64,000 nucleotides of DNA from an uncultured Bacillota bacterium. GTDB taxonomy: Bacteria > Bacillota_I > Bacilli_A > RF39 > UBA660. Below, in pieces: positions 2,173 through 36,473 of this stretch; positions within the stretch are counted from its first letter, which is position 1; each line of letters starts with the position of its first letter. The notes under the pieces are model-generated. The model saw nothing but the letters and a program-made list of their open reading frames with translations, did no database searches and was not told the origin of the DNA. Both the position numbers and the translations under genes were made by a program. The DNA lies in NCBI GenBank assembly GCA_900317975.1, contig ONIZ01000001.1:135479-199478 (forward strand). Reading direction: 5' to 3'.

Positions 2173-2694
2173 TTAGTTATTTAACTGTAGTATGTTTCTA
2201 GCATATTTACTATGTAATTCATCATTTATCTTAAGTGTATTACCATCATAGTCATAGTGTAGATCATAGATAATCATATCTGTCTTCTTATATGGAACAT
2301 TTATCTTATTGTAGATCTTTTTTATCTTTTCATATAAAGTTGAACTTACAATGGTATCGTTTTCTTCATAAAGTTCCGAATCATCACATGTATTTATCTT
2401 TTCTTTTACTACCTTGTCATTTACAATATTCTTATATACTAAACGGTTTTCTTTATTGAAAAAATGTCCATATACAATCTTATAAGGAATCTTCAATTCA
2501 GTAGTTATAAGTCCAAGAATGTATAATGTTTGATTAATATAATAGTATTTTAGTTTCTTGTATGTACTAGCAATAGCATTATATACAATATTGTTTTCAA
2601 TCTTTCTTATATAGTATCTATTGTTGAACTTATCAAATCCTACTTTATTGAATTTTTCTCCGTATATTCTTGAATAATTATTGCTAACAATCAT
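2173..2694 (-). CDS. hypothetical protein (Y/N/K-rich), first gene of a minus-strand block
   Basis: 173-aa ORF with an ATG start. Motif A lies 23 nt upstream. Confidence 0.5.
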   Translation of the reverse strand: MIVSNNYSRIYGEKFNKVGFDKFNNRYYIRKIENNIVYNAIASTYKKLKYYYINQTLYILGLITTELKIPYKIVYGHFFNKENRLVYKNIVNDKVVKEKINTCDDSELYEENDTIVSSTLYEKIKKIYNKINVPYKKTDMIIYDLHYDYDGNTLKINDELHSKYARNILQLNN

Positions 2695-2717
2695 AATTCA
2701 TTAAAAATGAACTTAAA

Positions 2718-2734
2718 TATATAATTAAAAATAA
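2718..2734 (-). promoter_or_regulatory. motif A, copy 2
   Basis: Exact TATATAATTAAAAATAA, 23 nt upstream of the ATG at 2694. Confidence 0.5.
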
Positions 2735-2764
2735 AACAAATTTAGATTGAATTTTATTTGTCTA

Positions 2765-2787
2765 TTTGACTATTTTATTTTATAAAA
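2765..2787 (+). promoter_or_regulatory. motif B (consensus about TGAACTATATTTATA), copy 1
   Basis: tttgACTATtttattttataaaa, about 40 nt upstream of the ATG at 2808. Confidence 0.45.
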
Positions 2788-2807
2788 AATATTAAATTCA
2801 TTTAAAA

Positions 2808-3836
2808 ATGATTAATAATCAATTATTGTATATTGGACTAAACGGTTTAGCAGGATCAGGGAAAGACACACTTGCAAAAATGCTTAATGTAATACTAATG
2901 AAAGATTGGAAAAACATTGATGAATGTAAAGAATTCTATGATAAATTCTATGTTCGTCCTAATGTTTCTGCAACATATTATGAAAAGACAAAAGAATATG
3001 ACAATAAAGTAATATGTCTGGCTTTTGCTGATCAGTTAAAGACAATATGTTCTGATATCTTCGGTATTCCACTTAAATATTTCTATTTCAACAAATCAAC
3101 CGCATGGGTATGTATCAACCATAATTTTGAATATACGGAAATACGTCCTGATAATGTTGTTACCTGTGAAGACTATTTCTATAATATATCAGAATATAGT
3201 GAATCAGAAACAAAATATTGGATGTCATTACGTGATGTACTTGTCTATATAGGAACATATGTATTGCAATCCGAAGTCAATAAGAATGTATTTGTCAATA
3301 TTGTCTCAAACAAGATAAACAATCTTTTATTGAAGAATCATAGTTTGTCTTATGCTATCATAACAGATGTAAGATTCACTCATGAGATTGAATTCATCAG
3401 AAAGAATAACGGAATAACAATCAAGATAATCAGGGATAGTGTTGTTCCTTTGTCAAATATTGCAGAGCATGATCTTGATGATGAAGACAGATATGATTAT
3501 GTAATCTACAATAATGATACCTATGATGACTTGTTCAATCAGGTATGGGATATTGTCCATAGTAACAAAGAGTTTGAAAATGATGTTGTAGATATGACAA
3601 CCAGAGAAAATATCAACAACTATTTGAGAAAGATTGATGAAGATGAATATCAGGTTTGTTCTCCCTATGGTATACAACAAATTGGTCATGAAAATGGAGA
3701 GATATCAATGATAGACCTAAAGGGCGGTCCAACAATTTATATAGATCAAGAGATACCCGGTACATCTATCATACCATATAGTATTGTTATGGATGAAAAT
3801 ACAAGTAAGTTCATAATAAAAGGGAATAGCGATTAA
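2808..3836 (+). CDS. deoxynucleoside monophosphate kinase (T4 gp1-like) with a C-terminal extension of about 90 aa
   Basis: P-loop GLNGLAGSGKDTLAKML. Later segments (SLRDVLVYIGTYVL, IITDVRFTHEIEFIR, IKIIRD, AEHDLD) run in the same order as T4 gp1 (SGKDT ... RRLMQALGTD ... VPDTRQDHEMD ... HVVRP ... HITE), recalled from memory. Confidence 0.65.
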   Translation: MINNQLLYIGLNGLAGSGKDTLAKMLNVILMKDWKNIDECKEFYDKFYVRPNVSATYYEKTKEYDNKVICLAFADQLKTICSDIFGIPLKYFYFNKSTAWVCINHNFEYTEIRPDNVVTCEDYFYNISEYSESETKYWMSLRDVLVYIGTYVLQSEVNKNVFVNIVSNKINNLLLKNHSLSYAIITDVRFTHEIEFIRKNNGITIKIIRDSVVPLSNIAEHDLDDEDRYDYVIYNNDTYDDLFNQVWDIVHSNKEFENDVVDMTTRENINNYLRKIDEDEYQVCSPYGIQQIGHENGEISMIDLKGGPTIYIDQEIPGTSIIPYSIVMDENTSKFIIKGNSD

Positions 3837-3851: not shown

Positions 3852-4430
3852 TTATACTTTATTTTGTGGTAATGGTTTTATGTTAGTAAATGGAAATATT
3901 TCCCAATTTGGATTCTTGCATTTCCATTTTGTTATGTCTCCAATTGTCTTTAGCCGTTCACAACCTTGAAACATACATTTTAGATCTATGTCTTCAGTTA
4001 TATTCCAATTAGATATGTCCCCAATGTCTATAAGACTCCTACAGTTATTGAACATAAATGCCATGCTTTTCACATTAGATATATCCCAATTTTCTAATCC
4101 TATTACTTTTCGAAGATATTTGCAACCACCAAACATTGCAGATAGATTTGTAACATGAGATATATCCCAATCAGATACATCAACTTCAACAATGTTCCAA
4201 GATGAAAATGTATTTGAAAGATTTTTAATATTTGATATATCCACATTATTCATATCAAGAATATTACTTTCTCCAATCTTATCACTTATTATATGTTGTA
4301 GTTCTGAAAAATTCTTTGGAACAAGATTTGATTGAATATTGTCTCTTGATAACCTGAATTTCTCAGTTATATACCCATGCAAACATGGGATCCTTTCAGC
4401 TTCTGAAATATAGTGATTTAGGTTTTTCAT
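3852..4430 (-). CDS. DUF285 / BspA-related 26-residue-repeat protein with a CTS-like N-terminus
   Basis: Repeats: VSDWDISHVTNLSAMFGGCKYL, LENWDISNVKSMAFMFNNCRSL, ISNWNITEDIDLKCMFQGCERL. N-terminus is MKNLNHYISE. Confidence 0.65.
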   Translation of the reverse strand: MKNLNHYISEAERIPCLHGYITEKFRLSRDNIQSNLVPKNFSELQHIISDKIGESNILDMNNVDISNIKNLSNTFSSWNIVEVDVSDWDISHVTNLSAMFGGCKYLRKVIGLENWDISNVKSMAFMFNNCRSLIDIGDISNWNITEDIDLKCMFQGCERLKTIGDITKWKCKNPNWEIFPFTNIKPLPQNKV

Positions 4431-5030: not shown

Positions 5031-6674
5031 TTATTTTTGAATTCTAAGTTCAGAATATTCATCTTCAAGTAGATGCTTCTTAGCAGGATTTACAAGATAT
5101 GCTAATTTGCTCATTAAGTCTCTATTCAACAATACCTTTTGTTTCTTCTTTCTATTGTCAACTAAAGCAAACTTAGCATTAAGGAGTTTTCTTGTTCCTA
5201 TTTGGATGCATGGGATCTCTACAACTGTTCTTTCTTCAGTCACTTGTCCAACAATAGCTTTAGATACATCTACTTTCTTGAAGTTATATTCTTTTCCTTC
5301 AATTGTTGCAATGACATCATCACCTTGTATAGATATCTTCTCACAGCCAATTGTTGATGCCTTTGCTCCATTTCCAGTATCAAATTTTGCTTCAAATGTT
5401 ATCTCTTCTTCATTTTCCATTGTGAATGTAATGTCTTCAAGATATCCAACTGATTTTGGTGACAATACTAATTCATTTATGTCATTTATATTGTCTAATA
5501 ATATTTTGCAGAAATTTTCATCAATTACATCACTTATACCTTCCGTACCAGGAGAAGCATTGAATTCAAGAACAACGTTGTCACCAATTTCTGGATTTGA
5601 TCCCTTGACAAGTGGCATGATGTCAACAGCACACCAAGGCATTCCAGATATCTTTGCTACTTTAAGAGCTATCTCTTCTTGTTCTTTAGTCAATTCAACC
5701 TTTTCAGCAACAGCACCTAAAGAGACATTTGAACGGAAGTCACCACCAATCTTCTTACGTTTCATCTGAGCAAGAATCTTCTGTTTTGTTCTCATTGTCA
5801 ATACATGTACTCTTATGTCACCACCATCTGCTTCTTCTTTCTTCTGTACTAATAGTTCTCTTTCTTCATCAATAGCAAATATAGCTTGAAGGATTGAAAG
5901 AATAGTCTTGCCGTTTACCATGAATACACCAGTACCACCATGACCATCCAGGATCTTTACAACATATTCATATTTTTCAGATTCATCAGAATTCTGATCT
6001 TTATATATGTCTTTCAATTTCTTCTTAAGACTATCCATTCCGTCCTTTATGTCATTCTTAGATACTAATGTGAACTTTGGTTGTGGTATCTCATATCTTT
6101 CCATTAATACTGCGGACTGGTATTTGTTGCATGCCTTCTTCAATGACTGAGCAGGATTGATTACAAATATACCCCAGTTCTGGATTTCTTTTATACATTC
6201 CATACATTCTTCAGACTCTTGAGCTCCAAGACGAACAATAGCAATAGTATCAATATTTGACTGATGATCAATAGTATACTTAAGCTTATCATCCCATATA
6301 TCTATCTTGTCATCAGTTGCTTTATAGTTAAGCTGTTCTGCTACAAATATTTCTAGTTTGATGTCTTTTCCCTTTATAGCATCTTCCAAGTTCTTTAATG
6401 TCTTGTTCTTAGATGCATCTCTTTCATTAGTGAAGAACAATATATTTTTAAAGAAATATTCTTTGTTAGCTCCTAATGGGTCCTTTTCTGATGGTTCTAT
6501 ATCTAACTCATTTGTAGCTGATTTGTCTTCTTGTGATTCACCAGGTTCTTCAAGATCTACTGGATCAATAGCAGAATCATCTTTTGGCAATAAGTCATCA
6601 TCTGCTTCTAAGACTCTATTTATGTCATTCAAATTAGTCAGATAAGTATGTAAATGTTCTTTAAACTTTTTCAT
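5031..6674 (-). CDS. RimK-like ATP-grasp ligase fused to a C-terminal retropepsin-like (PF05618, ATP-dependent zinc protease / RimB-like) domain
   Basis: ATP-grasp motifs: GHGGTGVFMV, GGDIRVHVL, GGDFRSNVSLGA, CAVDIMP, LEFNASPG. C-terminal AKFDTGNGAKAS ... ALVDNR ... LLNRDL matches the AKIDTGARTSS ... LTDR ... LLGR pattern. The N-terminal region of about 70 aa is acidic. Confidence 0.7.
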   Translation of the reverse strand: MKKFKEHLHTYLTNLNDINRVLEADDDLLPKDDSAIDPVDLEEPGESQEDKSATNELDIEPSEKDPLGANKEYFFKNILFFTNERDASKNKTLKNLEDAIKGKDIKLEIFVAEQLNYKATDDKIDIWDDKLKYTIDHQSNIDTIAIVRLGAQESEECMECIKEIQNWGIFVINPAQSLKKACNKYQSAVLMERYEIPQPKFTLVSKNDIKDGMDSLKKKLKDIYKDQNSDESEKYEYVVKILDGHGGTGVFMVNGKTILSILQAIFAIDEERELLVQKKEEADGGDIRVHVLTMRTKQKILAQMKRKKIGGDFRSNVSLGAVAEKVELTKEQEEIALKVAKISGMPWCAVDIMPLVKGSNPEIGDNVVLEFNASPGTEGISDVIDENFCKILLDNINDINELVLSPKSVGYLEDITFTMENEEEITFEAKFDTGNGAKASTIGCEKISIQGDDVIATIEGKEYNFKKVDVSKAIVGQVTEERTVVEIPCIQIGTRKLLNAKFALVDNRKKKQKVLLNRDLMSKLAYLVNPAKKHLLEDEYSELRIQK

Positions 6675-6812: not shown

Positions 6813-7373
6813 ATGAAGTTAATAATTATAGAGGGAACAGACAATGTTGGAAAAGATACACTTATTTCAAGAATTATGGAAAACTACGATGTAATGACAC
6901 TCATTCATTGTGGTAAGCCAAAGTCAAAAGATCATCCAAATGAATCACAGGACAGTTTATTCAATTTCTATATAAAAAGTATAATAAACAAGAAATATAA
7001 TAATTCAGATGTCATTATTATGAACAGATCTCATATAGGTGAAGCAGTCTATGGAGTATTATATAGGAATAGGGACATAAATGAAGTATTGAAGAAGATT
7101 CATGATTGGAATGTTGAGCTTATGAAATGTCCAGACCTTGAAGTAAAGTATATACAATTATTAAGTACATCCGAAAGACTATTGAAGAACAATGAAGATG
7201 GACAGTCATTATCAAAGGGAAATAGTTCTAATATAATAAAAGAAACAGCATTGTTTACAGAAGCATATGTAAAGTCATTTTTAGACAAGAAACTTATATA
7301 TGTAGATGATAATGGAGAATTCAGGACAAAAGAAGATATATTTGATGAAGCATGGGATTTCATTAATAAATAA
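6813..7373 (+). CDS. thymidylate-kinase-like P-loop (d)NMP kinase
   Basis: MKLIIIEGTDNVGKDTL matches the Tmk-type IEGxDxxGK(T/S)T P-loop. Size is 186 aa. Confidence 0.55.
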   Translation: MKLIIIEGTDNVGKDTLISRIMENYDVMTLIHCGKPKSKDHPNESQDSLFNFYIKSIINKKYNNSDVIIMNRSHIGEAVYGVLYRNRDINEVLKKIHDWNVELMKCPDLEVKYIQLLSTSERLLKNNEDGQSLSKGNSSNIIKETALFTEAYVKSFLDKKLIYVDDNGEFRTKEDIFDEAWDFINK

Positions 7374-7397: not shown

Positions 7398-8102
7398 ATG
7401 ATTAAGACAGAAGATATATTGAAACAGTTCAAAGAAAAGTATGATAATAAAGATTTTAGAATAATTGGCAATAATGTACAGCAAGCAAAGACAATTGAGT
7501 TACAGAATGTACAGTTTGAAGTAGATAAGCCATGGATAGTAAGAGAACCAAACTATGATTATTTCAATAGAGAGCTTGAATGGTATAAGTCAGAATCATT
7601 GAATGTGAATGATATCCCAGAAGGTGCTCCAACAATGTGGAAGTCTTGTGCAACACCAATAGGATATATTAATTCAAATTATGGGTGGATGATCTGGTCT
7701 AAAGACAACTATAATCAATTTGATCATTGTCTACAAAAACTAATTGAGGATCCACATACAAGAGAGGCATGTATGATATATAATAGACCATCAATGCAGG
7801 AAGACTATAATAAATTTGGCATGCATGATTTTTGTTGTACATATTCTGTTCAATGTTTCATAAATGAAGACAAAGAAGGAAAGAAGCATCTAAAATATAT
7901 TGTATATATGAGAAGTAATGATGCAGTATTTGGATTTGATAATGATGCATTATGGCATAAGTATGTTCAGCAAATGCTAAGGAATAGACTTAGTGAACAT
8001 TTTAATGAAGAATTCATAGCAGACAATATTATATGGAATGCAGGATCATTACATATTTATGAAAGACATTTCAAATATTTAGAGGATGGACAAAACGAGT
8101 GA
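7398..8102 (+). CDS. deoxycytidylate 5-hydroxymethyltransferase (T4 gp42-like, thymidylate synthase superfamily)
   Basis: Long colinear matches to T4 gp42 as recalled: RELEWYKSESLNVNDIP, INSNYGWMIWSKDNYNQFDHC, MIYNRPSMQEDYNKFGMHDFCCT, YMRSNDAVFGFDNDALW, IIWNAGSLHIYERHF. The nucleophile Cys and the Asp that replaces the ThyA Asn are both present. Confidence 0.8.
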   Translation: MIKTEDILKQFKEKYDNKDFRIIGNNVQQAKTIELQNVQFEVDKPWIVREPNYDYFNRELEWYKSESLNVNDIPEGAPTMWKSCATPIGYINSNYGWMIWSKDNYNQFDHCLQKLIEDPHTREACMIYNRPSMQEDYNKFGMHDFCCTYSVQCFINEDKEGKKHLKYIVYMRSNDAVFGFDNDALWHKYVQQMLRNRLSEHFNEEFIADNIIWNAGSLHIYERHFKYLEDGQNE

Positions 8103-8676
8103 CATAAAGAGAAAGTTGTTAGATGAGCTTAAAGCTAATAATGTAAAAGATTGCGGATATAATTGCCAAAGTGGAAGAAGATATGTAGAAGTAAAGAATG
8201 CATTGTTTGAAGTTAACAAAGATCGTATTTTTGAAAACATTCCTAAATTGTCTTATATGGATGATTCTTGGTATGTAGCAAATTATGAGCCTTTGCTAGA
8301 AAGGAATGATCAATATAATAAATGCATTAATAAGTTGATTGAGAATCCAGCATCACGTCAAGCAGTTCTCATATTAGTAGATCCTAAAGAATATGACAAT
8401 GAAGACAAAACATTCATATGTACAATGTATATGCATATCTTTCTCAATCATATAGAAGAAAATAAATATGAATTGGAATATATTGTGCATATGAGGTCAA
8501 ATGATGCTATAGAATTCATAACCGATCATCAATGGCACCAGAAAATTTATTTTCGAATTTTTAATGAATTAATTGAGAAAACGAACTATATTATAATAAA
8601 GAAACCTATTGTTTGGAATGCAGATACTATTCATCTATATGAGCAGTTTTGGGATCAAGCAATAGACAATTATTAA
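8086..8676 (+). CDS. divergent second gp42/ThyA-family paralog
   Basis: FICTMYMHIF (Cys), HMRSNDAIEFITDHQWH (RSND plus Asp), IVWNADTIHLYEQFW. It lacks the N-terminal segment of about 40 aa. It overlaps the upstream paralog by 17 nt. Confidence 0.6.
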   Translation: MDKTSDIKRKLLDELKANNVKDCGYNCQSGRRYVEVKNALFEVNKDRIFENIPKLSYMDDSWYVANYEPLLERNDQYNKCINKLIENPASRQAVLILVDPKEYDNEDKTFICTMYMHIFLNHIEENKYELEYIVHMRSNDAIEFITDHQWHQKIYFRIFNELIEKTNYIIIKKPIVWNADTIHLYEQFWDQAIDNY

Positions 8677-8695
8677 CTTATAATATATATAGAGT

Positions 8696-9379
8696 ATGAA
8701 ACATAAGATATCCGCATCAATAATGTGTGTAGACAACCTATTAGATCTACAGTCAGAAATAAAGACATTAGAAGACATAGGTATTGACTATTTGCATTTG
8801 GATGCGATGGATGGGCATTTTGTAAATAATATTACATTTGGCCCAGATATTTTCAATGCTGTTCAAAAATGTTCTTCAATTCCTTGTGACTATCATCTTA
8901 TGCTTGATAATCCATTACCATTCATACAAAGACTTGATCTTAACAATAATGATATTGTGACTATTCATGCTGAGATTGATTCACAAAGATTTGAAGAAGC
9001 ATTTGAATATTTGAAGACATTAAAGAAAAGAGGAGTAAAGATAGGAGTAGCAATCAATCCGGGTACATCAATAGAATCATTGGTGAAATACTTGGATGAT
9101 ATTGATGTGATATTAGTCATGCTTATCAATCCTGGTTTTGCTGGTCAACCTATTATTGATGGAATATTACAAAAGCCTGTATATATCAGGAAATATCTAG
9201 ATTCACTTAATCATAAGAAGATAATGATATCTGTTGATGGTGGTGTATCAGTGGAAAGAGCAAAATATCTTTCAAAGAATGGTATAGACATGTTTGTTGG
9301 TGGTACTTCTGGTCTGTTCATAAAGAATAGTGATTTGAAAAAGAATGCAGAAATATTGAGAAAGAACATAAACAATTAA
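8696..9379 (+). CDS. rpe: ribulose-phosphate 3-epimerase family protein
   Basis: SIMCVD ... HLDAMDGHFVNNITFGP ... YHLML ... INPGFAGQ ... SVDGGV ... VGGTS is colinear with E. coli Rpe. Confidence 0.8.
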   Translation: MKHKISASIMCVDNLLDLQSEIKTLEDIGIDYLHLDAMDGHFVNNITFGPDIFNAVQKCSSIPCDYHLMLDNPLPFIQRLDLNNNDIVTIHAEIDSQRFEEAFEYLKTLKKRGVKIGVAINPGTSIESLVKYLDDIDVILVMLINPGFAGQPIIDGILQKPVYIRKYLDSLNHKKIMISVDGGVSVERAKYLSKNGIDMFVGGTSGLFIKNSDLKKNAEILRKNINN

Positions 9380-9413
9380 GACATAAATAAAACATAATAA
9401 TTAGATAATATAT

Positions 9414-11075
9414 ATGAAAGTTTTTATTACAACATCTGGAATTGGATCAAGACTATTAGAGCTTACAAAATATACTAATAAGTCAATGATCAAAATAGGC
9501 AAGAAACCTGTTATATCTTATATTATTGATGAATATCCTGAAGATACAGAGTTTGTCATTTCTCTTGGATATTTTGGTGATCACATCAAACAATATCTTG
9601 AGTTAGCATATCCTGACAAGAAGATTACATTTGTAAATGTTGATAACTATGCTGGTCCAGGATCATCTCAAGTCTATTCACAATTACAAGCTGAACAATA
9701 TCTTCAAGAGCCATTTATCTATCATGATTGTGATACTATTGTTCAGAACCTTCAAGAGCAGATACCAATGGATTTCAAATATAATTTCTTAGTAGGTTAT
9801 GAGACAAATTCAGAGTTATATGATGCTTTTGATTATGATGTGAATACTAAGACAAATGACAAGTATGACTCATATAAGCTTATAAAGACATATATGAAGC
9901 CTGATTCATTAGTAGGTATGCTTTCATTCATTGGTATTTGTGGTATATATGACTATAAGACATTCTGGAAATATATGCATAAAGCTTATGAGAATGAGAC
10001 AGTTCCCTATGACTTCTTGGTCTATCACAAATATGGAATGTTCAAAAACAGTCTTAGAGCAATAAAAGTTGATAACTGGACAGATACTGGAAATATTGCT
10101 GGTGTAAAGAATGCAAGAAAGATGTTCAAGGATCAGTTCTCAATATTAGACAAGAATGATCAGGCTATCTTCATCATAAAAGACAAGGTAATCAAGTTCT
10201 TTGCTAAAGATGGAGTAGTAGACAATCTCCTTGTTCATTATAATGCTATAAAAGAATTCTGTCAGCCAATAACTCAGAAGACAAAGAACTTTATGTGCTA
10301 TGACTATATTGATGCAGAGAATGCTATAGACAAAATGAATCCTGTAAGATTTGAGTCATTTATGAACACACTTAAGGATTCAGGTTTCTGGGACAACAAG
10401 GAATGGATTGACAAAGAATTGTTCTTTACATGTATGCATAATTTCTATCTTAACAAGAACATACAACGTGTCAATCAGTTCAAGGAATTCTATCAGGTTA
10501 CAGAAGACAAAGACATCTATGTGAATGACATTCTTATTCCAAAAGAATGGACTATTGAAAGGATGCTTAATGAGATGACAAAACTTGATGAATGGAAGAA
10601 TAGTGTACCTTCTGGATGGCATGGTGATTTTGTATTAGACAATATATTATATGATAGTAAGAATGAAAAATATATATTGTTAGACTGGAGACCTAACTTT
10701 GGGGAAATCATAGAATACGGAGATAAAAACTATGACTTTGGAAAGATGAATCATAACATCACATTCAATTTCAATAGTGCTTATAATGATTTGTTCTCCA
10801 TTGATGAATCCGATCCAGATAATATCTATATTAATATATTATGCAACAATTATGTCTATGAATGCAAAGAGGTATTAAGAAAATTTGTAGAAGAAAACTA
10901 TAATGTAAGATTCCCTTATATTGAAATGATTACTGGAGCATGTTGGGTAAGTATGTCACCATTGTATTTCCTCAATCCAGTATCAAAGTTCTTGTTCTAT
11001 ATGGGTAAACTTACTCTTTATGTAAACTTAATGAAATTACTTGGAAATAAGATAACAACAAAATTTGACAAATAA
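9414..11075 (+). CDS. bifunctional sugar-phosphate nucleotidyltransferase (N-terminal) and APH/choline-kinase-fold kinase (C-terminal)
   Basis: N-terminus MKVFITTSGIGSRLLELTKYTNKSMIKIGKKPVISYII matches the GxGxRL ... K signature. C-terminus WHGDFVLDNILYD ... YILLDWRPNFG matches the HGDxxxxN plus D kinase motifs. Confidence 0.65.
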   Translation: MKVFITTSGIGSRLLELTKYTNKSMIKIGKKPVISYIIDEYPEDTEFVISLGYFGDHIKQYLELAYPDKKITFVNVDNYAGPGSSQVYSQLQAEQYLQEPFIYHDCDTIVQNLQEQIPMDFKYNFLVGYETNSELYDAFDYDVNTKTNDKYDSYKLIKTYMKPDSLVGMLSFIGICGIYDYKTFWKYMHKAYENETVPYDFLVYHKYGMFKNSLRAIKVDNWTDTGNIAGVKNARKMFKDQFSILDKNDQAIFIIKDKVIKFFAKDGVVDNLLVHYNAIKEFCQPITQKTKNFMCYDYIDAENAIDKMNPVRFESFMNTLKDSGFWDNKEWIDKELFFTCMHNFYLNKNIQRVNQFKEFYQVTEDKDIYVNDILIPKEWTIERMLNEMTKLDEWKNSVPSGWHGDFVLDNILYDSKNEKYILLDWRPNFGEIIEYGDKNYDFGKMNHNITFNFNSAYNDLFSIDESDPDNIYINILCNNYVYECKEVLRKFVEENYNVRFPYIEMITGACWVSMSPLYFLNPVSKFLFYMGKLTLYVNLMKLLGNKITTKFDK

Positions 11076-11078
11076 GAT

Positions 11079-11993
11079 ATGAAGATAGCCGGAATTACAG
11101 TTGCTTACAATGAAGGTAATATGGTGAAATATGTAATGCCATATTATGAGAAAATGGGTATTGATAAATTGATAGTCTATGACAATATGTCTACTGATGA
11201 CATGTGTGAAAAACTTTCTAAATATCCATTTGTGGAGATTCGTCATTTTGATACTAATGGGAAGTTTGATGACAGAAAGAATTCTGATCTCAAGGAAGAA
11301 GTGTCTTATGAATTACTTCAAGAAGGATATGATTGGGTATATACTGGAGACTTTGATGAAATAGTCTATTGTGAAGGTGATTTCAAGAAGGAACTTGAGA
11401 AAATTGAGGAATTAGGTGGAACAGTACTTTGTAGAGACATGATCCAGCCATTCAATCCATTGCCTTATGACTTTGATGAGACAAAACTTATTCATGAACA
11501 ATGTACTCATTTCCTTACATGGCATGACTGGTCAAGTACATGGGGTGGATCAAAGGTATTGTTGAGAAGTAAGAAAGTACCGAAGATAAAGTTGTCATTA
11601 GGTGCCCATGGAACAGGATTTCCAAAGAAGGGTATTGAGACAGATCCAGTATTGTTTGGCTATCCTTTCATCACATTCCATCTCAAATATGTTGACTTTA
11701 CTGCATTAGAGCATAATTCTCACGAAAAGCATGCAAGAATACAATGGAGATTAGATGTCCCAACATGTACAGCAGTAGATGCATCATTTACAAAACGTCT
11801 TTATTCTCGTACAATGGGTGATGCTGGTATAAAGAATACTATAGATAAATTAATGAAGAAGACAAGTAAACTTAATATTGCTCCTGGTTGGGAATCATTC
11901 AAGGAATACTATGATAAAAACTATAAGATGAATATGACTAAATTTAAAAATATTAAACACGTAAAAAGATTAGATTATGAACAGAACAGCTGA
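11079..11993 (+). CDS. GT-A fold glycosyltransferase (GT2-like)
   Basis: ITVAYNEGNMV ... LIVYDNMSTDD ... GDFDEIV (DxD-like). Confidence 0.5.
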   Translation: MKIAGITVAYNEGNMVKYVMPYYEKMGIDKLIVYDNMSTDDMCEKLSKYPFVEIRHFDTNGKFDDRKNSDLKEEVSYELLQEGYDWVYTGDFDEIVYCEGDFKKELEKIEELGGTVLCRDMIQPFNPLPYDFDETKLIHEQCTHFLTWHDWSSTWGGSKVLLRSKKVPKIKLSLGAHGTGFPKKGIETDPVLFGYPFITFHLKYVDFTALEHNSHEKHARIQWRLDVPTCTAVDASFTKRLYSRTMGDAGIKNTIDKLMKKTSKLNIAPGWESFKEYYDKNYKMNMTKFKNIKHVKRLDYEQNS

Positions 11994-13323
11994 AAAGAAC
12001 ATTTTGATCGGAAAAATTGGAAAATCAATTAAATTCAAGAACTTAGACATTAGAACGGGTGGTGATGCATGCATGATATTCTATTCATCAATTGCAAGAA
12101 TGAATCCTGAATATAACTTCTATTGGATTGGCCCAAACCAGATGAACAAGCTTAGTCAGGAGGAGTATGACTATATATTCCCTAACCATAACGTATTCTC
12201 TGCTTATGGATCAGATTATGACAACCCTAATGCACATCCATTCCAGCCAATATTGGATTATTTCAAAAATAATGACATAAAGATTGACTTCGCTTTGCTT
12301 ATGTCTGGAATGTGCTCAGGTCTCAATGTACCGAATTTCATGAAGAGTAAGAAGACTGGTGAATATGCTAAGATCTTGAATGCATTCAAAAACTATGTTG
12401 GTCCCTATATCTGGACACTTAATGAAACAAATGTGCCTTTCTATCTTATTTCAGAGGATGCAAGATATATTACAACAAATGCTACTGATCTCTGTAACAG
12501 GGAAAGACTTATCTTTACACAAACAAATGGTTATTTCAATCCTATTCCCCATATCACATCATTGACAGACTTCACATTGAAAGAAGATAGCTCAATCAAA
12601 TGTATCTATGGATATGTTGAGAGAATATTTATGATGGGTCTTAGTCATGACTGGAAAGAGAAGATTGATATTGACAGGAAACTTCATTCTACTGGAAACA
12701 GACTTATTGTTATCTCAAATGGATGTGGTCAGAAAGATATCAATAGAGCAAATGGCGGAAAGGGTTCAAGACTTCCTGAATACAAGAAATATATCATTGA
12801 CAATCTTAAGAATACCGAATATTCTGGTACAAAGATCTATGGACAGTGGGATGACAAGACATATGCTAAATATCCTGATACTGTCATTGACAAGCCACTT
12901 GTAGAACTTGAAGATGAAGTAGCAGATGCTCGTTATTCATTAGTATATTCTATCATGCCTGGGTTTGTTACTGTAAAAGCTTGGGAAATGATCATCAAGG
13001 GTCTTATCCCATTTATCCATCCCGATTATGACAAAGACAGACTTCTTGGACTTCCTGAATATTGTTATCTTAAGGATGAGAAAGACTTGTTGATAAAGAT
13101 GAGAGAACTTGATGCTCATGATGAATTATATCTACGCTTATTGAATAATTGCTTTAATTGCATATCAGAAGATGATCTCAATGGTAAGCGAATGAACAAT
13201 TTCATATTCAACAAGATTGCAGAAGATCTGGGATTTGAGTATAAAGAGAAAGAAGGATGTGAATCTATTTTTGATCATTTCTCAAAGACTGTATTTGATC
13301 CTTCAAAAGTTATAAATAAATAG
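11977..13323 (+). CDS. possible DNA beta-glucosyltransferase-like protein (T4 BGT-like, tentative)
   Basis: PFYLISEDARYIT resembles T4 BGT IYYLFTDIRLPF, which holds the catalytic Asp. VTVKAWEMIIKGLIPFIHPDYD resembles ITLRVWETMASDAVMLIDEEFD. Both comparisons are from memory. Overlaps the upstream GT by 17 nt. Confidence 0.4.
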   Translation: MNRTAEKNILIGKIGKSIKFKNLDIRTGGDACMIFYSSIARMNPEYNFYWIGPNQMNKLSQEEYDYIFPNHNVFSAYGSDYDNPNAHPFQPILDYFKNNDIKIDFALLMSGMCSGLNVPNFMKSKKTGEYAKILNAFKNYVGPYIWTLNETNVPFYLISEDARYITTNATDLCNRERLIFTQTNGYFNPIPHITSLTDFTLKEDSSIKCIYGYVERIFMMGLSHDWKEKIDIDRKLHSTGNRLIVISNGCGQKDINRANGGKGSRLPEYKKYIIDNLKNTEYSGTKIYGQWDDKTYAKYPDTVIDKPLVELEDEVADARYSLVYSIMPGFVTVKAWEMIIKGLIPFIHPDYDKDRLLGLPEYCYLKDEKDLLIKMRELDAHDELYLRLLNNCFNCISEDDLNGKRMNNFIFNKIAEDLGFEYKEKEGCESIFDHFSKTVFDPSKVINK

Positions 13324-13332
13324 ACAATATAT

Positions 13333-13824
13333 ATGAACAAGATAATTGTAATTAGCGATATTGATGGTTGCTTGACAGATGGAGGACTTTATTATACTGC
13401 TGATGGCAAAGTAATGAAGAAGTTTGGAGTTGGTGATCATGAAGGAGTAAAGCTTTTACGAAAGAACAATATAGATATCCTGTTTATCACTGCCGATAAG
13501 ACAGGATATCCTATTGTCAAACGTAGAATAGATGATATGAAATGTGATCTTGTTGTTGTAAATGAAATAGAACGATTAGACTTCATTAAAGAATATGTGA
13601 AAGAATATGAACAAGTGGTATTCTTTGGAGATGGTCTTGGGGATGCTAATGTGAAGAGCAAAATCCCAGAAATATATTTCATAACTCCAAGAAACGCCAG
13701 AAATGAAGCTAAATATGTTTCTGACTATATCACCGAAAACAAAGGTAGTGAAGGAGCTTTCTTAGATCTTGCTATACATGTTTCTTGGAAAACAAATACA
13801 TATTATAATAAACTATATGAATAG
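13333..13824 (+). CDS. KdsC-family HAD phosphatase (KDO-8-P / KDN-9-P phosphatase type)
   Basis: VISDIDGCLTDGGLYYTADGKVMKKFGVGDHEGVKLL ... FFGDGLGD is typical of the HAD-IIIA KdsC pattern. Confidence 0.75.
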   Translation: MNKIIVISDIDGCLTDGGLYYTADGKVMKKFGVGDHEGVKLLRKNNIDILFITADKTGYPIVKRRIDDMKCDLVVVNEIERLDFIKEYVKEYEQVVFFGDGLGDANVKSKIPEIYFITPRNARNEAKYVSDYITENKGSEGAFLDLAIHVSWKTNTYYNKLYE

Positions 13825-15109
13825 ACAAATAAGATGGGCAGCAATACAACCGCTTACTGGAGGTATGTATCTTGGGGCTGAAGAAGCTATAGGAAATAAA
13901 GCCGAATGGATCATGTCATTCAAAGGATTAGATACTGTCAAATATTCAAAGACTGATCCAACACAAATGACATCTGTTGGCAATGAATATAACCTATTGA
14001 AATATCTAGAAAAGAAAGGGAGATCTGTACCCTATTATGTCATTAATAGTCCAATGTTTGATATTGACATAAACAGTACAAATGTTGACATTACTTTAGA
14101 TGGTGACAAGGCAACTCCTGATTATAATGATATTGACATAATTGTTGGTGTTCCTGTTTGTTCAGGTCTTTCAATGGTCACAAGTGGTAGTGAAGAGACA
14201 AAGAAGCAGAGAAACTGCAATATGCAATGGATGGCTAATTATACATTACAAGTAATAAGGCCAAAGGTATATATATTTGAGAATGCTCCAACATTGATGA
14301 CAGAACGTGGTGAGTATCTAAGAGAATGGTTTAATGAATTAGCATCTTTGAATGGTTATTCTATTCTCTATTATAAGACAGATACTATTCTTCATAACAA
14401 TCCGCAAAAACGTCCTCGTACATTTGTCATTTTTGTAAAGCATAACAAGTATGAGGCACAACAAGATCCACCATTGTTTGATTGGGAAAAGAAACCTATA
14501 TCATTAGAAGATTTTTTGAACAATATACCAGAAGGACTTGAGCAAGATGTTCCTGTATCAACAAGCCCAAATAACTTCTATTTGAAAGACTTTATGAATG
14601 AAGAATATAATAATGACTGGAAGAAACTTATCAATGGATCCGTCATGAACTTCATCATCAAAGAAAAGAAATTAGACAAGTTGATTAAGCATACTGAAAA
14701 TAATGACAAATATGGAGATGAGAACAAGGAGAAGACATTGAAATATTTCAATCATATTAAGAAGAAGAAAGAAATGGGATTGAATTTCTATGGTAATGAT
14801 CTTGTATATTTCAAAGACAAACTTCCTTCTGTTCAATTTAGAGCAATCCCTAATATGGTACATATAACAAAGGACAGAATATATACTATAAGAGAATATC
14901 TTACATTTATGGGAATGCCTTATGACTTTATCTTATATGGAGACAAGTCTAATCTTCCAAAGATCGCTCAGAATGTTCCAGTAGGTACAGCAAAATTCAT
15001 AGTTGAACAAGCAGTAAAGATCATTGAGAACTGGGGACAAGAAAGAACAACAAATCATAATGCGTTATATCAAAACAATATAGAACAAAAGACAAGAAAC
15101 GGGGATTAA
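13817..15109 (+). CDS. DNA (cytosine-5)-methyltransferase-fold enzyme
   Basis: Motifs in order: PLTGGMYLG (I), GVPVCSGLS (IV), IFENAPTL (VI), QKRPRTFVIF (VIII), REYLTFMGMPYDF (IX), AQNVPVGTAKFI (X). I use the ATG at 13817, which overlaps the upstream stop as ATGAATAG. The track start at 13769 is a TTG. Confidence 0.75.
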   Translation: MNRQIRWAAIQPLTGGMYLGAEEAIGNKAEWIMSFKGLDTVKYSKTDPTQMTSVGNEYNLLKYLEKKGRSVPYYVINSPMFDIDINSTNVDITLDGDKATPDYNDIDIIVGVPVCSGLSMVTSGSEETKKQRNCNMQWMANYTLQVIRPKVYIFENAPTLMTERGEYLREWFNELASLNGYSILYYKTDTILHNNPQKRPRTFVIFVKHNKYEAQQDPPLFDWEKKPISLEDFLNNIPEGLEQDVPVSTSPNNFYLKDFMNEEYNNDWKKLINGSVMNFIIKEKKLDKLIKHTENNDKYGDENKEKTLKYFNHIKKKKEMGLNFYGNDLVYFKDKLPSVQFRAIPNMVHITKDRIYTIREYLTFMGMPYDFILYGDKSNLPKIAQNVPVGTAKFIVEQAVKIIENWGQERTTNHNALYQNNIEQKTRNGD

Positions 15110-26857: not shown

Positions 26858-27307
26858 ATGACATCATTCATCAAGAATATGAAGCCCAAGAAAGGGTTCT
26901 ATAAGCAAGGAATAGTCAATCCAAAATTGTTGAAGAAATATGCGGATTCTTTAAAGAATGAACCTATTATCTATAGAAGTGGATTAGAACTACAATTCAT
27001 CCAATATTGTGAAAATAATCCATCTATTATAAAATGGGCGTCTGAACCAATAGAGATTCCATATTTCTGTAGATTAGACCAAAAAGAACATAAATACTAT
27101 CCTGACTATATTCTAGAAAACAAGCAAGGGAACAAGGTCATCGTAGAAGTAAAGCCTTATAATCAGACAATAAAGCCAGATATGACAGATACTATTTGGC
27201 TGAAAGAAGCATGGGTAAAGAATATAGACAAATGGACTGCAGCAAAAGAATTTGCAGAAAAGCATAACATGAAATTCATTATAGTAACAGAAAAGTTCTT
27301 CACATAA
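26858..27307 (+). CDS. PD-(D/E)XK nuclease, T4 gp4-like head completion nuclease (tentative)
   Basis: YRSGLELQFIQYCENNPSIIKWASEPIEIPYF ... KYYPDYILENKQGNKVIVEVKP has the D ... E-x-K nuclease layout. Length is 149 aa, and I recall T4 gp4 as about 150 aa. Confidence 0.5.
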   Translation: MTSFIKNMKPKKGFYKQGIVNPKLLKKYADSLKNEPIIYRSGLELQFIQYCENNPSIIKWASEPIEIPYFCRLDQKEHKYYPDYILENKQGNKVIVEVKPYNQTIKPDMTDTIWLKEAWVKNIDKWTAAKEFAEKHNMKFIIVTEKFFT

Positions 27308-28021: not shown

Positions 28022-28138
28022 ATTTAAGTCTCCAGGTTCTAACAACATTTGTTATATATTGGAGACAGTTCAAACAATAAATTTAAGTCTCCAGGACAGT
28101 TCAAACAATAAATTTAAGTCTCCAGGTTCTAACAACAT
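27998..28138 (+). repeat. nested tandem direct repeats (59-bp period, with an internal 31-bp duplication) that copy the 3' end of the upstream gene
   Basis: tattggagacagttcaaacaataaatttaagtctccagg starts at 27998 and again at 28057. gacagttcaaacaataaatttaagtctccag is tandem at 28064 and 28095. ttctaacaacat closes copies 1 and 3. Each full copy contains the inverted repeat tggagac ... gtctcca. Confidence 0.85.
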
Positions 28139-28166
28139 AAATAAAATATATATAGAGGCAAAATTT

Positions 28167-29021
28167 ATGAAGGTAGCAATTTGTACTGTTGGTAGACTAG
28201 AAAATAGATATATCAATGAATTCGTTGATCATTATAGAAATATTGGAATTGATAAAATATTCATTCATGACAATAACTATGATGGAGAAGATCATTTTGA
28301 AGATGTATTACAACAAGATATAAATAGTGGATTAGTTGAAATTATTAATTACAGAAATAGACAAGTATGTCAACTAGAAGCTTATATGAAATGTTATGAA
28401 CTTCATAAAAATGAATATGATTGGATTCTTTTTATAGATTGTGATGAATTTCTTTATATGGAGCATTTTAATAATATTCATGAATTCTTAGCTCAACCGA
28501 AATTCAATAGTTTTCAAATGATTCATATCAATTGGATGATTTATGGTGATAATGATTTAGTATATTATGAAAATAAAAAATTAAAAGATCGATTTATTAA
28601 TCCAATATTACCTTTTAATTTTAAGACTACAGAAAATGATATGACATTTAATTGTCATATTAAATCAATTATTAGAGGAGGATTAGAAAGATTAATTTTT
28701 GTTTATAGTCCACATACACCTGAAAATAATTTTAAATGTTGTGATGCCACCGGTAATGTATGTCAGTCAAATAGTCCATTTCTTGTTCCGTATAACTTTA
28801 CTGAAGCACATTTCAAGCATTATGTTACAAAGACAATTGATGAATATTATCATATTAAAGTTAAAAGAGGATTTCCGGATGTAAATAAAGATTTCTTTAA
28901 AACTAATAATTGGATTGAACAATTTTTTAAGATAAATAAAATGACAATAGAAAAACAACTATATATAAGAGGACTATATAATAAAAATATTGTAAAAAAT
29001 GAAAAATTAAATGGAATTTAA
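28167..29021 (+). CDS. GT-A fold glycosyltransferase (GT2 / GT92-like)
   Basis: MKVAICTVGRLENRYINEFVDHYRNIGIDKIFIHDNNYDGED ... ILFIDCDEFL. I prefer the ATG at 28167. The track start at 28059 is a TTG inside the repeat. Confidence 0.6.
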   Translation: MKVAICTVGRLENRYINEFVDHYRNIGIDKIFIHDNNYDGEDHFEDVLQQDINSGLVEIINYRNRQVCQLEAYMKCYELHKNEYDWILFIDCDEFLYMEHFNNIHEFLAQPKFNSFQMIHINWMIYGDNDLVYYENKKLKDRFINPILPFNFKTTENDMTFNCHIKSIIRGGLERLIFVYSPHTPENNFKCCDATGNVCQSNSPFLVPYNFTEAHFKHYVTKTIDEYYHIKVKRGFPDVNKDFFKTNNWIEQFFKINKMTIEKQLYIRGLYNKNIVKNEKLNGI

Positions 29022-29070: not shown

Positions 29071-29916
29071 ATGAATAATAGATTTTGTATTGTAATTCCT
29101 GTCTATAAAACAGATTTAAGTATAACAGAGGAATTATCATTTAGAAACTTTATCAATACTTTCAAAAACAAAGACAACAATATTTTCTTCATATGCCCAG
29201 ATGACCTTGATACAACTGCATATGATACTGTCATAAAAAATGAATTGTCTAAGAAAGATAAGTTATTGATAGAAAGAAAGAATTTTGATGCCAAATATTT
29301 CAAAAGTGAATTCACTTATAGTCAGTTATGTGTTAACTATGATTTCTATAGTTCATTTGATGATTATGACTATATGCTTATCTGGCAGTTTGATTGCTAT
29401 CTATTCAATGATAATATTGAAAAATGGTGTGATAAGGGATATGACTATATAGGAGCACCAATCATTTCTGAATATAGTGGATGGAAAAGCAATAATGATA
29501 TTGTATGGAAGCCAAAAGTCGGCAATGGCGGATTAAGCTTAAGAAAGATTAGTACATTCAAAGATGTCACAAATCCAGAAGGAGAATTCTTGACATACTA
29601 TAAGTCAACTTATAATAATAATTTGTTTGAAAAACTTAAGTTTGAAGATGTATATTTCTATAATGTGTTCCGTTATTATTGGGATGCTAATATTCCTTCA
29701 TGGGAAGAAGCTGGTCGATTTGCATTAGATATGAATCCAGAAGTATATGCTAATTTTGTTAATGATAAAGAATTCTTACCTATGGCTTGTCACGCATGGC
29801 CAAAGAATATTAGATTCTGGAAAGACAAAATAAAAGAAATAGACAATAACATAATAGATTATTGTGAAGAAAAATATAAAGAATTTTTTAAATTATATTA
29901 TGGAGAAAAAAAATGA
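29071..29916 (+). CDS. DUF5672-like putative glycosyltransferase
   Basis: YDYIGAPI ... VGNGGLSLRKI resembles the GNGGFSLR signature I associate with DUF5672. Called from memory. Confidence 0.4.
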   Translation: MNNRFCIVIPVYKTDLSITEELSFRNFINTFKNKDNNIFFICPDDLDTTAYDTVIKNELSKKDKLLIERKNFDAKYFKSEFTYSQLCVNYDFYSSFDDYDYMLIWQFDCYLFNDNIEKWCDKGYDYIGAPIISEYSGWKSNNDIVWKPKVGNGGLSLRKISTFKDVTNPEGEFLTYYKSTYNNNLFEKLKFEDVYFYNVFRYYWDANIPSWEEAGRFALDMNPEVYANFVNDKEFLPMACHAWPKNIRFWKDKIKEIDNNIIDYCEEKYKEFFKLYYGEKK

Positions 29917-35483: not shown

Positions 35484-36473
35484 ATGACTATGGATAGAAT
35501 AAGTGTAATTACAACATACTACAATGCAGAGAAATTTGTTATTGATGCTATAAATAGTGTAAACCAGCAAATAGTTGGTGATGATTTTGAAGTTGAATAT
35601 GTATTAGTAAATGACAAGACTCCAGACAATACTCATAAACTAGTACAGGATTTTGTCAATAAGGTTGGAAATCCTAAGATAGACTTCAAACTTGTGGAAC
35701 CTGATGAGAATCTTGGATGCGGTGGAGCAAGAAAGTTTGGTATTGATAATGCAACAGGTAACTATTTTATGTTCCTTGATGCTGATGACTACTATCTTCA
35801 TACTGACTTCATCCTTAGAGCTTATCATACTATAAAAGAAGAGAATGCAGACATCGTTGAATTTGGTATACTGTTCAATCAACCTAATGGACAGCAAATC
35901 AATAATACAGCACCACAGAAAATAGTAATAGAAAACAATCCTTCATTAGCAGAGATAGCATTGTTCAAAGACAATCTCATAAAGTTCAATGTATGGTCAA
36001 AGATATATACCAGAGAAATGGTTGAGTCTTATCCATATTCTACAGTAAGAACATTTGAAGATGTACGAACAATACCTATATGGATAAGCAATGCTAAGAA
36101 AATAGTAATAATGCCAAATACAGAAATCAATTACAGGGCTGCTGGAGGATCTATCATTCGTACTAATATGGTTGATACACGGCTTGGTACTATTACAGCA
36201 ATTGCAGAATTGTTTGAACGTTTCAAGGGAGATTTGAATGTAATGAAGGCAATGTATGGAAGAGCAATGGTAGACTTAGAAGCAATTCTTCATAATCATT
36301 CATCTAATGATGAAGGGTTCAATGAAATGTCAAGACTAAATACAAAGATGCTTGCTTACATATATCCTGACAAATACAAGACAATGACATTCCATATTGA
36401 GGATGAACAAAATATGCAAAATCAGGGAGGTAAGACTCCTCAAGAAAAAAAGGATGATTTGGAAATCATATAA
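35484..36473 (+). CDS. family 2 glycosyltransferase
   Basis: ISVITTYYNAEKFVIDAINSVNQQ ... EYVLVNDKTPDNT ... GCGGARKFGIDNATGNYFMFLDADDYY. An AAGAGGAG Shine-Dalgarno-like sequence lies upstream. Confidence 0.8.
   Translation: MTMDRISVITTYYNAEKFVIDAINSVNQQIVGDDFEVEYVLVNDKTPDNTHKLVQDFVNKVGNPKIDFKLVEPDENLGCGGARKFGIDNATGNYFMFLDADDYYLHTDFILRAYHTIKEENADIVEFGILFNQPNGQQINNTAPQKIVIENNPSLAEIALFKDNLIKFNVWSKIYTREMVESYPYSTVRTFEDVRTIPIWISNAKKIVIMPNTEINYRAAGGSIIRTNMVDTRLGTITAIAELFERFKGDLNVMKAMYGRAMVDLEAILHNHSSNDEGFNEMSRLNTKMLAYIYPDKYKTMTFHIEDEQNMQNQGGKTPQEKKDDLEII

Follow-up and report, generated by a model that had tools for sequence, protein, structure and literature searches.

Thymidylate synthase (ThyA)-fold enzymes of phages set the modified-base chemistry on which the rest of a DNA-hypermodification pathway builds, from the folate-dependent deoxycytidylate (dCMP) hydroxymethylase (dCH) of phage T4, gp42, to a branch of the fold that was shown in 2025–2026 to have switched from folate to flavin, with 5-hydroxycytosine as the product (PMC13326640). 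The members of that branch, the flavin-dependent 5-hydroxy-dCMP (5hodCMP) synthases (RB69 gp48, DLP3 gp80 and HY126 AfhB; PDB entries 9iqu and 9iqc), keep the ThyA fold and dCMP as the substrate, having abandoned folate chemistry (Lee et al. NAR 2026, PMC13326640); their clusters encode a Tmk-like kinase, an AfhE-type nucleotidyltransferase-kinase, a haloacid dehalogenase (HAD) phosphatase and glycosyltransferases, and an Asn at the position of Escherichia coli Asp169 (RS-x-N) is diagnostic of them (PMC13326640). Here, we analyse a stretch of 64,000 nucleotides (hereafter the window; contig ONIZ01000001.1 of assembly GCA_900317975.1, positions 135,479 to 199,478, deposited as an uncultured Bacillota bacterium), in which two ThyA-like open reading frames (ORFs) of a very large, uncultured phage, ORF1 and ORF2, overlap in tandem. 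The reading towards which we lean, by a narrow measure, is that ORF1 is an ordinary folate-dependent dCMP hydroxymethylase and ORF2 another enzyme directed at C5, one that does without folate and takes a cytosine nucleotide as its substrate, within a DNA-hypermodification and glycosylation cluster.

The T4 enzyme provides the residue-level reference for both proteins. In the structure of T4 dCH with dCMP and tetrahydrofolate (THF), the p-aminobenzoate (PABA) moiety of the cofactor occupies a pocket formed by Y56, I81, W82 and F174, while the pterin is held by I81, V85 and Y218 and is positioned mainly through the substrate and water molecules (PMC6400193). E60, described as conserved in all thymidylate synthases (TS), CMP hydroxymethylases (CH) and dCH enzymes, protonates N10 via a water molecule; S94 and Y96 hold the water that takes the C5 proton, D145 activates the water that ends as the hydroxyl, and R123 and R124 contact the phosphate from the opposite subunit (PMC6400193). 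The C148S, D179N, S94N, Y96F and D145N mutants are inactive (PMC6400193).

The tandem pair lies on the + strand of the window, the G+C content of which is 30%, and its extents and 17-nt overlap are as a first-pass annotation, made from the DNA letters alone, had given them. Its features are as follows.

7398..8102, + strand: ORF1 (234 aa), gp42-type dCMP hydroxymethylase, a predicted 5-hydroxymethyl-dCMP (5hmdCMP) synthase, from its match to PDB entry 1b49, its identity to T4 gp42 and its residue set
7836..7838, + strand: codon (TGT) of ORF1 Cys147, counterpart of T4 Cys148 in the alignments and invariant among orthologues
8086..8102, + strand: 17-nt overlap between the end of ORF1 and the beginning of ORF2, the latter being read in the +1 frame with respect to ORF1
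8086..8676, + strand: ORF2 (196 aa), short ThyA-fold paralogue without the folate flap (Asp-type short family), as assigned from Pfam, PDB, a structural model and family conservation
8269..8292, + strand: ORF2 W62–P69 (WYVANYEP), junction of the internal deletion, holding the invariant Y63, Y67 and P69 (alignments and model)
8356..8358, + strand: ORF2 Arg91, counterpart of T4 Arg123 and E. coli Arg126, a predicted cross-dimer phosphate contact that is invariant in the short family (role from PMC6400193)
8419..8421, + strand: codon (TGT) of ORF2 Cys112, counterpart of the nucleophile T4 Cys148 in hidden Markov model (HMM) alignments, invariant
8494..8526, + strand: ORF2 R137–D147 (RSNDAIEFITD), with the phosphate-binding Arg/Ser, D140, the shortened loop, E143–F144 and D147 (alignments)

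The two ORFs were also considered as a frameshifted fusion, which was ruled out, since both frame and spacing vary among relatives (−17 to +18 nt, with inserts of 376–1567 nt in others).

The colinearity of ORF1 with T4 dCMP hydroxymethylase, claimed at first pass, stands: residues 18–229 match residues 22–225 of PDB entry 1b49 with E=4e-61, the identity to T4 gp42 is 50% over 209 aa, and the Pfam PF00303 score is 51.5 bits against a cut-off of 24.3. E59, W81, S93, Y95, D144, C147, D175, F178, D183, Y221 and R223 of ORF1 are the counterparts of the T4 functional residues E60, W82, S94, Y96, D145, C148, D171, F174, D179, Y218 and R220, respectively, and are invariant among eight orthologues. 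The Ile81/Trp82 part of the T4 PABA pocket reads M80/W81, M80 being invariant in the eight orthologues as well, the phosphate motif is R172/S173 and the cross-subunit Arg is R122. ORF1 reads RSND, with an Asp at the position of E. coli D169, and should therefore be a hydroxymethylase and not a 5hodCMP synthase, according to the signature of Lee et al. 2026 (PMC13326640). Judged by its residues, ORF1 thus carries the complete signature of a folate-dependent 5hmdCMP synthase. The T-R-E motif at residues 122–124 (window 7761–7769), in which a clade-invariant Glu replaces the second cross-subunit Arg of T4 gp42 and ThyA (SRR to TRE), was considered as a mark of dependence on a partner and proved uninformative, being present too in long genes that have no short gene beside them.

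ORF2 is far more divergent. Its PF00303 score of 26.4 bits barely exceeds the cut-off, and its match to 1b49 (E=2e-8) is restricted to the C-terminal two thirds, strengthening to E=1e-16 when the profile of its family is used. It is nearer to ORF1 (85 bits; 30% identity over the full length by BLASTP, E=3e-25) than to T4 gp42 (50 bits). About 40 residues had been thought at first pass to be missing from its N-terminus; instead, ORF1 and ORF2 can be aligned from Met1 onwards over their first ~60 residues and the gap is internal, and this misplacement of the deletion is what caused the removal of the cofactor flap to be missed. The family profile aligns with T4 dCH in two blocks, in which ORF2 29–65 matches T4 29–66 and ORF2 75–191 matches T4 107–225, so that ~30 residues, corresponding roughly to T4 67–106, are deleted where ORF2 65 joins 75. 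A second deletion removes one residue from the loop after RSND. The AlphaFold2 model of ORF2, computed with 35 family sequences as input (pLDDT 93.2, pTM 0.88), runs from a short helix, 60–66, straight into a long helix, 68–86, equivalent to T4 ~100–118. A Foldseek search with this model returned T4 dCH (1b49) first, with a TM score of 0.78, an E value of 2.6e-12 and a probability of 1.0, followed by MilA and then AfhB, and hundreds of TS structures were matched at E≤1e-3. As modelled, ORF2 has the ThyA α/β fold.

The HMM alignments equate ORF2 C112 with T4 C148, R137–D140 with T4 R168–D171, and D147 with T4 D179, and ORF2 keeps C112, R91, R137/S138, D140, D147 and Y185. Both C112 and D147 are invariant in 35 close and 28 distant members of the short family, and the initial assignment of both paralogues to the gp42/ThyA family, with a Cys nucleophile and a cytosine-specifying Asp, is borne out by these alignments and this invariance; the FICT, MRSND and IEFITD motifs are present in ORF2. 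Across the 28 diverse members, the mean identity of which is 32%, the invariant residues are F41, Y63, Y67, Q76, R91, C112, V134, R137 and D147, with S138, T113 and W62 conserved in at least 90% of the sequences. D140, at the pterin-recognizing position (T4 D171, E. coli D169), is invariant in the 35 sequences of the ORF2 clade, and the position of the second cross-subunit Arg is occupied by Gln in ORF2. MAFFT sets the invariant Y67, within N-Y-[DE]-P, against the N-Y-G motif of long proteins, and helix register places it three residues later. The clade has, in addition, a conserved N-terminal loop motif, G24-Y25-x-C27-x-x-G30, and an invariant Glu143–Phe144 pair, the Glu of which stands at the position of E. 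coli Gly173 and T4 Gly175, the former being among the 12 residues within 6 Å of C5 (PMC13326640).

The identity of the specificity residue bears on one of the functions first suggested for ORF2, that of a dUMP-specific duplicate by which the pair would cover both 5-hydroxymethylcytosine (hmC) and 5-hydroxymethyluracil (hmU). A ThyA-family paralogue adjoining an hmC-type enzyme would fit such a division of labour, but all short-family sequences examined have Asp instead of Asn at the position of Asn177 and the folate pocket required for hydroxymethyl transfer is absent, leaving this idea with almost no credibility.

The loss of the folate pocket is extensive. In the alignments, the segment carrying the PABA/pterin flap (T4 I81, W82 and V85) is deleted from ORF2, and the counterpart of T4 F174 is the residue lost from the RSND loop. 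No conserved short-family counterpart was found for T4 E60, S94, D145 or R220, the columns of which are variable; the Glu60 position is D59 in ORF2 and is filled by D, G, S, T, P, E, K or H in the family, and the Asp145 position is T109. Because the PABA pocket (I81, W82 and F174), Glu60 and Asp145 are deleted or unconserved, ORF2 should be incapable of the canonical reaction with methylene-THF. The idea that it is still a one-carbon transferase dependent on a pterin or folate, with a smaller pocket, whether as a hydroxymethylase redundant with ORF1, as a methylase of dCMP or as a user of some simple pterin without the PABA-glutamate tail, would find some room in the invariance of D140, in the proximity of the invariant Y67 to the Y96 position and in the placement of the T4 dCH pterin mainly via substrate and waters (PMC6400193). 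On the other hand, Y56 is probably to be added to the PABA-pocket residues that are gone, the missing Glu60 is needed to open methylene-THF, and mutation of either Asp145 or Ser94, both unconserved, abolishes T4 dCH activity; we consider continued use of a pterin or folate to be rather improbable.

What remains in ORF2 points to an active nucleotide pocket. Cys112, Asp147, Arg137, Arg91 and Tyr67 would not otherwise stay invariant at 32% family identity, and for this reason we infer that ORF2 is catalytically active on a cytosine deoxynucleotide. Its chemistry would be non-canonical, would not use folate and may be tied to the product of ORF1. According to the mechanism that we favour, ORF2 would have lost the cofactor flap when about 30 internal residues were deleted and would still fold as a ThyA core; it would form a shared-site dimer of the ThyA type, the retention of which is suggested by the invariance of the cross-subunit Arg91. 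Co-translated with ORF1, it would bind a cytosine deoxynucleotide through R137/S138, D147 and Y185, with Cys112 attacking C6. Its substrate may be either dCMP, which it would then use alongside ORF1, or 5hmdCMP, from which the exocyclic methylene intermediate would be formed anew. In the latter case, addition of the Cys to C6 of 5hmdCMP and loss of water would yield an exocyclic methylene able to capture a different nucleophile. Alternatively, an aldehyde might be added directly to the activated C5, a cofactor-free reaction that has been reported for DNA C5-methyltransferases. A third option would be a cofactor switch, for which the flavin-dependent 5hodCMP synthases offer a precedent of changed cofactor and chemistry within the ThyA fold (PMC13326640).

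The short family to which ORF2 belongs is sizeable. A search of 5.8 billion proteins yielded 37 clusters at 90% identity, with lengths of 184–208 aa, identities down to 34% and contigs of up to 274 kb; most of these family members carry no recorded Pfam hit. A profile search of 1.84 billion representatives yielded ~35 clusters at 50% identity, of 166–220 aa, covering the whole profile (E below about 1e-24), beyond which the next matches were canonical gp42-like proteins of 230–250 aa, aligned only over profile positions ~73–192. Members were found only in phage metagenome sequences: GenBank phages held no close ORF2 homologue, only canonical gp42 at <30% identity, BFVD held no short form and the GTDB genomes held no close homologue. 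The identical ORF2 sequence occurs on six contigs, the longest of 410 kb, and the sample names point to rumen or gut metagenomes. Pfam, PHROGs and NCBIfam contain no model of the short family, and the literature searched contains no description of it or of a tandem gp42 pair.

Selection on ORF2 is purifying and as strong as that on ORF1. In unsaturated comparisons of the same genome pairs, the ratio of nonsynonymous to synonymous substitution rates (dN/dS) was 0.146 and 0.133 for the short gene and 0.208 and 0.161 for the long gene, which, together with the depth of the family, rules out a decaying duplicate. These data also weigh on the view of ORF2 as a non-catalytic nucleotide binder, serving as a sensor or scaffold in a dNTP-synthesizing complex, or as a copy on its way to loss. 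Several residues essential to T4 dCH are indeed missing and most family members go without a recorded Pfam hit, but the family is old, diverse and constant in length, and its invariant nucleophilic Cys would be unusual in a pseudo-enzyme; such a role thus appears very unlikely. In a neighbour-joining (NJ) tree, the short proteins group inside the gp42-like radiation, with RB69 gp48 outside, and the bootstrap value of the short group is <50%; the two shared deletions are a better argument for a single origin. The best explanation of these sequence relationships is that ORF2 is a lineage-specific paralogue, one of a distinct family of short ThyA-fold proteins with its origin inside the gp42-like radiation.

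The arrangement of long and short genes was compared in loci pooled from ENA/Logan, IMG/VR and JGI metagenomes, in which each ThyA-like ORF was typed as long or short by two HMMs. Short genes of the Asp type (RS[NS]D), like ORF2, have the long gene directly upstream on the same strand in 17 of the 17 distinct sequences with at least 900 nt of upstream sequence, whereas none of the 21 distinct sequences of the Asn type (RSNN) does so within 1–10 kb. The spacing to the long gene is −17, −14, −8 (five cases), 3, 5, 13 or 18 nt in 11 of the 17 Asp-type cases and 376–1567 nt, with extra ORFs inserted, in the other six; in L001, five small ORFs separate the two genes. On three contigs, of 236, 376 and 435 kb, an Asn-type short gene and an orthologue of ORF1 (75–80% identity) lie ~200 kb from each other.

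This linkage is the principal ground for regarding ORF1 and ORF2 as a natural ThyA-type heterodimer, also raised at first pass, in which ORF2 would give Arg91 to the ORF1 site, its own flap-less pocket serving as a regulatory or half-site nucleotide binder. Half-of-the-sites behaviour is known for thymidylate synthase, and the heterodimer would be a fixed version of it. The unfailing position of Asp-type genes downstream of a long gene, with a spacing of −17 to +18 nt in 11 of the 17 that suits translational coupling, the invariance of Arg91, the retention in the ORF2 model of the β-sheet core of the ThyA dimer interface and the presence of an ORF1-like long gene also on the three large contigs with an unlinked short gene are all consistent with it. 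However, a purely structural partner needs no invariant Cys112, D147, R137 or Y67, six relatives tolerate 376–1567 nt between the genes and the sister-clade genes lie about 200 kb apart. Moreover, no co-variation of the partners is seen, in that long genes with 76–80% identity to ORF1 are accompanied only by a short gene that shares 34% identity with ORF2, and the conserved order among related phages may reflect mere common descent. We therefore regard the heterodimer as unlikely, although the least improbable of the alternatives to a folate-independent enzyme. In the Asn-type sister clade, no short gene adjoins a long one (0/21), which suggests that the nucleotide pocket of the short proteins works on its own.

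Among the functions first proposed, an enzyme for a different adduct is consequently the one that is best supported, on account of the lost folate machinery, the constrained pocket and the occurrence of other second ThyA-fold genes in related phages; the hmC/hmU duplicate was the one to be discarded. These large phages repeatedly combine a gp42-type gene with another, divergent gene of the ThyA fold. In L037, a viral contig of 168 kb, the start of a gp42-type gene at 3001–3708 lies within a full-length ThyA-like ORF at 2229–3017 that reads RASN, an Asn signature, and the divergent copy is the upstream gene, unlike the order in the window. The Asn-type clade comprises loci L010–L015 and L117–L153 (for example L012:9989–10627), and its RSNN motif is the 5hodCMP-synthase signature; the gene in L012 lies 2 kb downstream of ThyX, beside a ClpP-like protease and a nucleoside 2-deoxyribosyltransferase-like gene. 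In the closest relative, L100, an insert with a Cys-rich ORF of 437 aa and one of 52 aa (706–2019) stands precisely where the long ThyA gene gives way to the short one, at the equivalent of window ~8083–8140. The 437-aa ORF has two CxxC...CxxxC modules, a nuclease-like C-terminus and a weak DUF7487 match, and the end of the long gene beside the insert is a diverged patch that reads QRSQD instead of MRSND; by its sequence, the insert resembles that of a homing endonuclease, flanked by a co-conversion tract.

Several observations weigh against a folate-independent catalytic role for ORF2. The loss of E60 and D145 could mean that all turnover has been lost and that only nucleotide binding is left, while the invariant D140 at the pterin-recognizing position could mean that some pterin is still bound. 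A heterodimer would account just as well for the 17/17 linkage and for the start/stop overlap with ORF1 that is often seen. The match of Y67 to T4 Y96 is uncertain, its register being three residues off, the geometry of the ORF2 pocket was read from alignments and not from atomic coordinates, and the gene neighbourhood offers no nameable co-substrate.

The folate-independent enzyme, if such it is, would have consequences beyond the locus. What is new is a short family within a well known superfamily that combines a deleted cofactor wall with strong constraint on the nucleophile. As a further branch of the fold, under strong selection and with its nucleophile intact, ORF2 points to another reaction or another mode of assembly. 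More speculatively, and at odds that we put well below even, the short flap-less family may be a new folate-free catalytic class of the TS superfamily that makes an undescribed cytosine modification, or else provide the first natural ThyA-family heterodimer, so that the DNA of these rumen or gut megaphages would hold a second cytosine derivative beside glycosylated 5hmC. Candidate routes for such a class would be the trapping of the exocyclic methylene of 5hmdCMP by a new nucleophile, addition of an aldehyde to C5, and hydroxylation by a pterin or flavin hydroperoxide. If ORF2 is an enzyme, an undescribed modified cytosine is predicted in very large gut and rumen phages, which, if true, would bear on restriction and CRISPR evasion, on sequencing misreads of such genomes and on new nucleotide-modifying enzymes for biotechnology. 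The division into Asp and Asn types, with its all-or-none linkage, provides a ready comparative design.

The genes around the pair in the window are as follows.

2808..3836, + strand: T4 gp1-type dNMP kinase, predicted for the step from hm-dCMP to the diphosphate (phrog_139; PF21448)
3852-4430, − strand: DUF285 (Mycoplasma-type) protein
5031..6674, − strand: RimK-family ATP-grasp ligase, divergent, syntenic with the kinase and long-gene unit in every relative
6813..7373, + strand: Tmk-like nucleotide kinase, directly upstream of ORF1 (phrog_761; 26% identity to RB69p045), found with the long gene in all relatives
8696..9379, + strand: ribulose-phosphate 3-epimerase family protein, immediately 3′ of ORF2 (PF00834, E=8e-50; NF004076 above cut-off)
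9414..11075, + strand: sugar-1-phosphate nucleotidyltransferase (N-terminal) and aminoglycoside phosphotransferase (APH)-type kinase (C-terminal), the C-terminal domain matching RB69p052 with E=1e-6, in the layout of AfhE and RB69 gp52:53
11079..11993, + strand: glycosyltransferase family 2 (GT2)-like glycosyltransferase (PF13704)
11977-13323: ORF of 448 aa, no family match
13333..13824, + strand: KdsC/KDN-9-phosphate-phosphatase-like HAD phosphatase (AfhF-like role)
13769-15109, + strand: C5-cytosine DNA methyltransferase-like ORF with a TTG start (TIGR00675, 55 bits, below cut-off; phrog_116)
26858-27307, + strand: TnsA-like endonuclease
28059-29021, 29071-29916 and 35484-36473: glycosyltransferase-like genes (GT2/GT92, DUF5672 and GtrB-like)
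38629-47226, 49258-57555 and 59234-63940, − strand: giant ORFs of 2865, 2765 and 1568 aa, respectively

The layout of the cluster parallels that of the base-glycosylation clusters of RB69, DLP3 and RL38J1, and the glycosylation capacity is large for one phage region. The five ORFs for sugar activation, from 8696 to 13824, recall the arabinose pathway (AfhE/AfhF) known from RB69 and HY126, except that the place of the arabinose-5-phosphate isomerase of those phages is taken by a ribulose-phosphate 3-epimerase, a swap that, by analogy, suggests a different pentose or a different route to the pentose. The RimK-family ORF scores best in NCBIfam against MptN, RimK and CofF, α-L-glutamate ligases that act on cofactors and proteins, without reaching the cut-off of any of them. 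Its N-terminus is extended by an acidic stretch of ~170 aa and a further domain is present at the C-terminus; it adjoins the kinase and gp42-type unit also in relatives without an adjacent short gene. The C5-cytosine methyltransferase-like ORF sits in a cluster that is expected to replace cytosine with a modified base, and both L005 and the NCBI contig holding P0019 carry a similar gene in a syntenic position.

Comparison with the described ThyA-fold enzymes sets the two proteins apart from each other. T4 gp42 (EC 2.1.2.8; PDB entries 1b49, 1b5e and 6a9a) shares with ORF1 the fold, the length and the full set of catalytic and cofactor residues. With ORF2 it shares the core fold (TM score of 0.78), the Cys nucleophile, the RS-x-D motif, the cross-subunit Arg, the cytosine-specifying Asp and the His/Tyr that holds the 3′-OH. 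ORF2 departs from it in the absence of the I81/W82/V85 flap, of F174 and of conserved counterparts of E60, S94 and D145, as well as in the clade-invariant E143 at the Gly175 position and the new conserved N-terminal loop motif, TGY-D-C-x-S-G.

E. coli ThyA (PDB entry 2tsc) resembles ORF2 in its superfamily, its obligate shared-site dimer and its Cys146/Arg166/Arg126′ chemistry, whereas ORF2 has Asp in place of Asn177, lacks W80, W83 and E58 and has no C-terminal lid. MilA, a CMP hydroxymethylase (PDB entries 5b6d and 5jnh) and the second-best structural match, likewise shares the ThyA fold, a cytosine nucleotide as the substrate and the Asp at the specificity position; in contrast to ORF2, it is full length (about 320 aa) and folate dependent, and the ORF2 family profile covers only its central 65 residues (E=5e-4).

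The flavin-dependent enzymes offer a parallel in context, the cluster in the window having the layout of 5hodCMP-synthase clusters. The Asn-type sister clade of ORF2 has their diagnostic Asn (RSNN, compared with RSQN in RB69 gp48), while ORF1 and ORF2 read RSND. Placement of ORF2 in the flavin-hydroxylase lineage is not supported, given its Asp at the D169 position and given that RB69 gp48, unlike ORF2, is full length, has no flap deletion and falls outside the gp42-like and short group in the NJ tree. The ORF2 model matches AfhB with a TM score of 0.63, weaker than its match to T4 dCH, and phmmer searches from ORF1, ORF2 or an Asn-type short protein did not reach AfhB. Of the described systems, it is thus T4 dCH that the ORF2 model most resembles.

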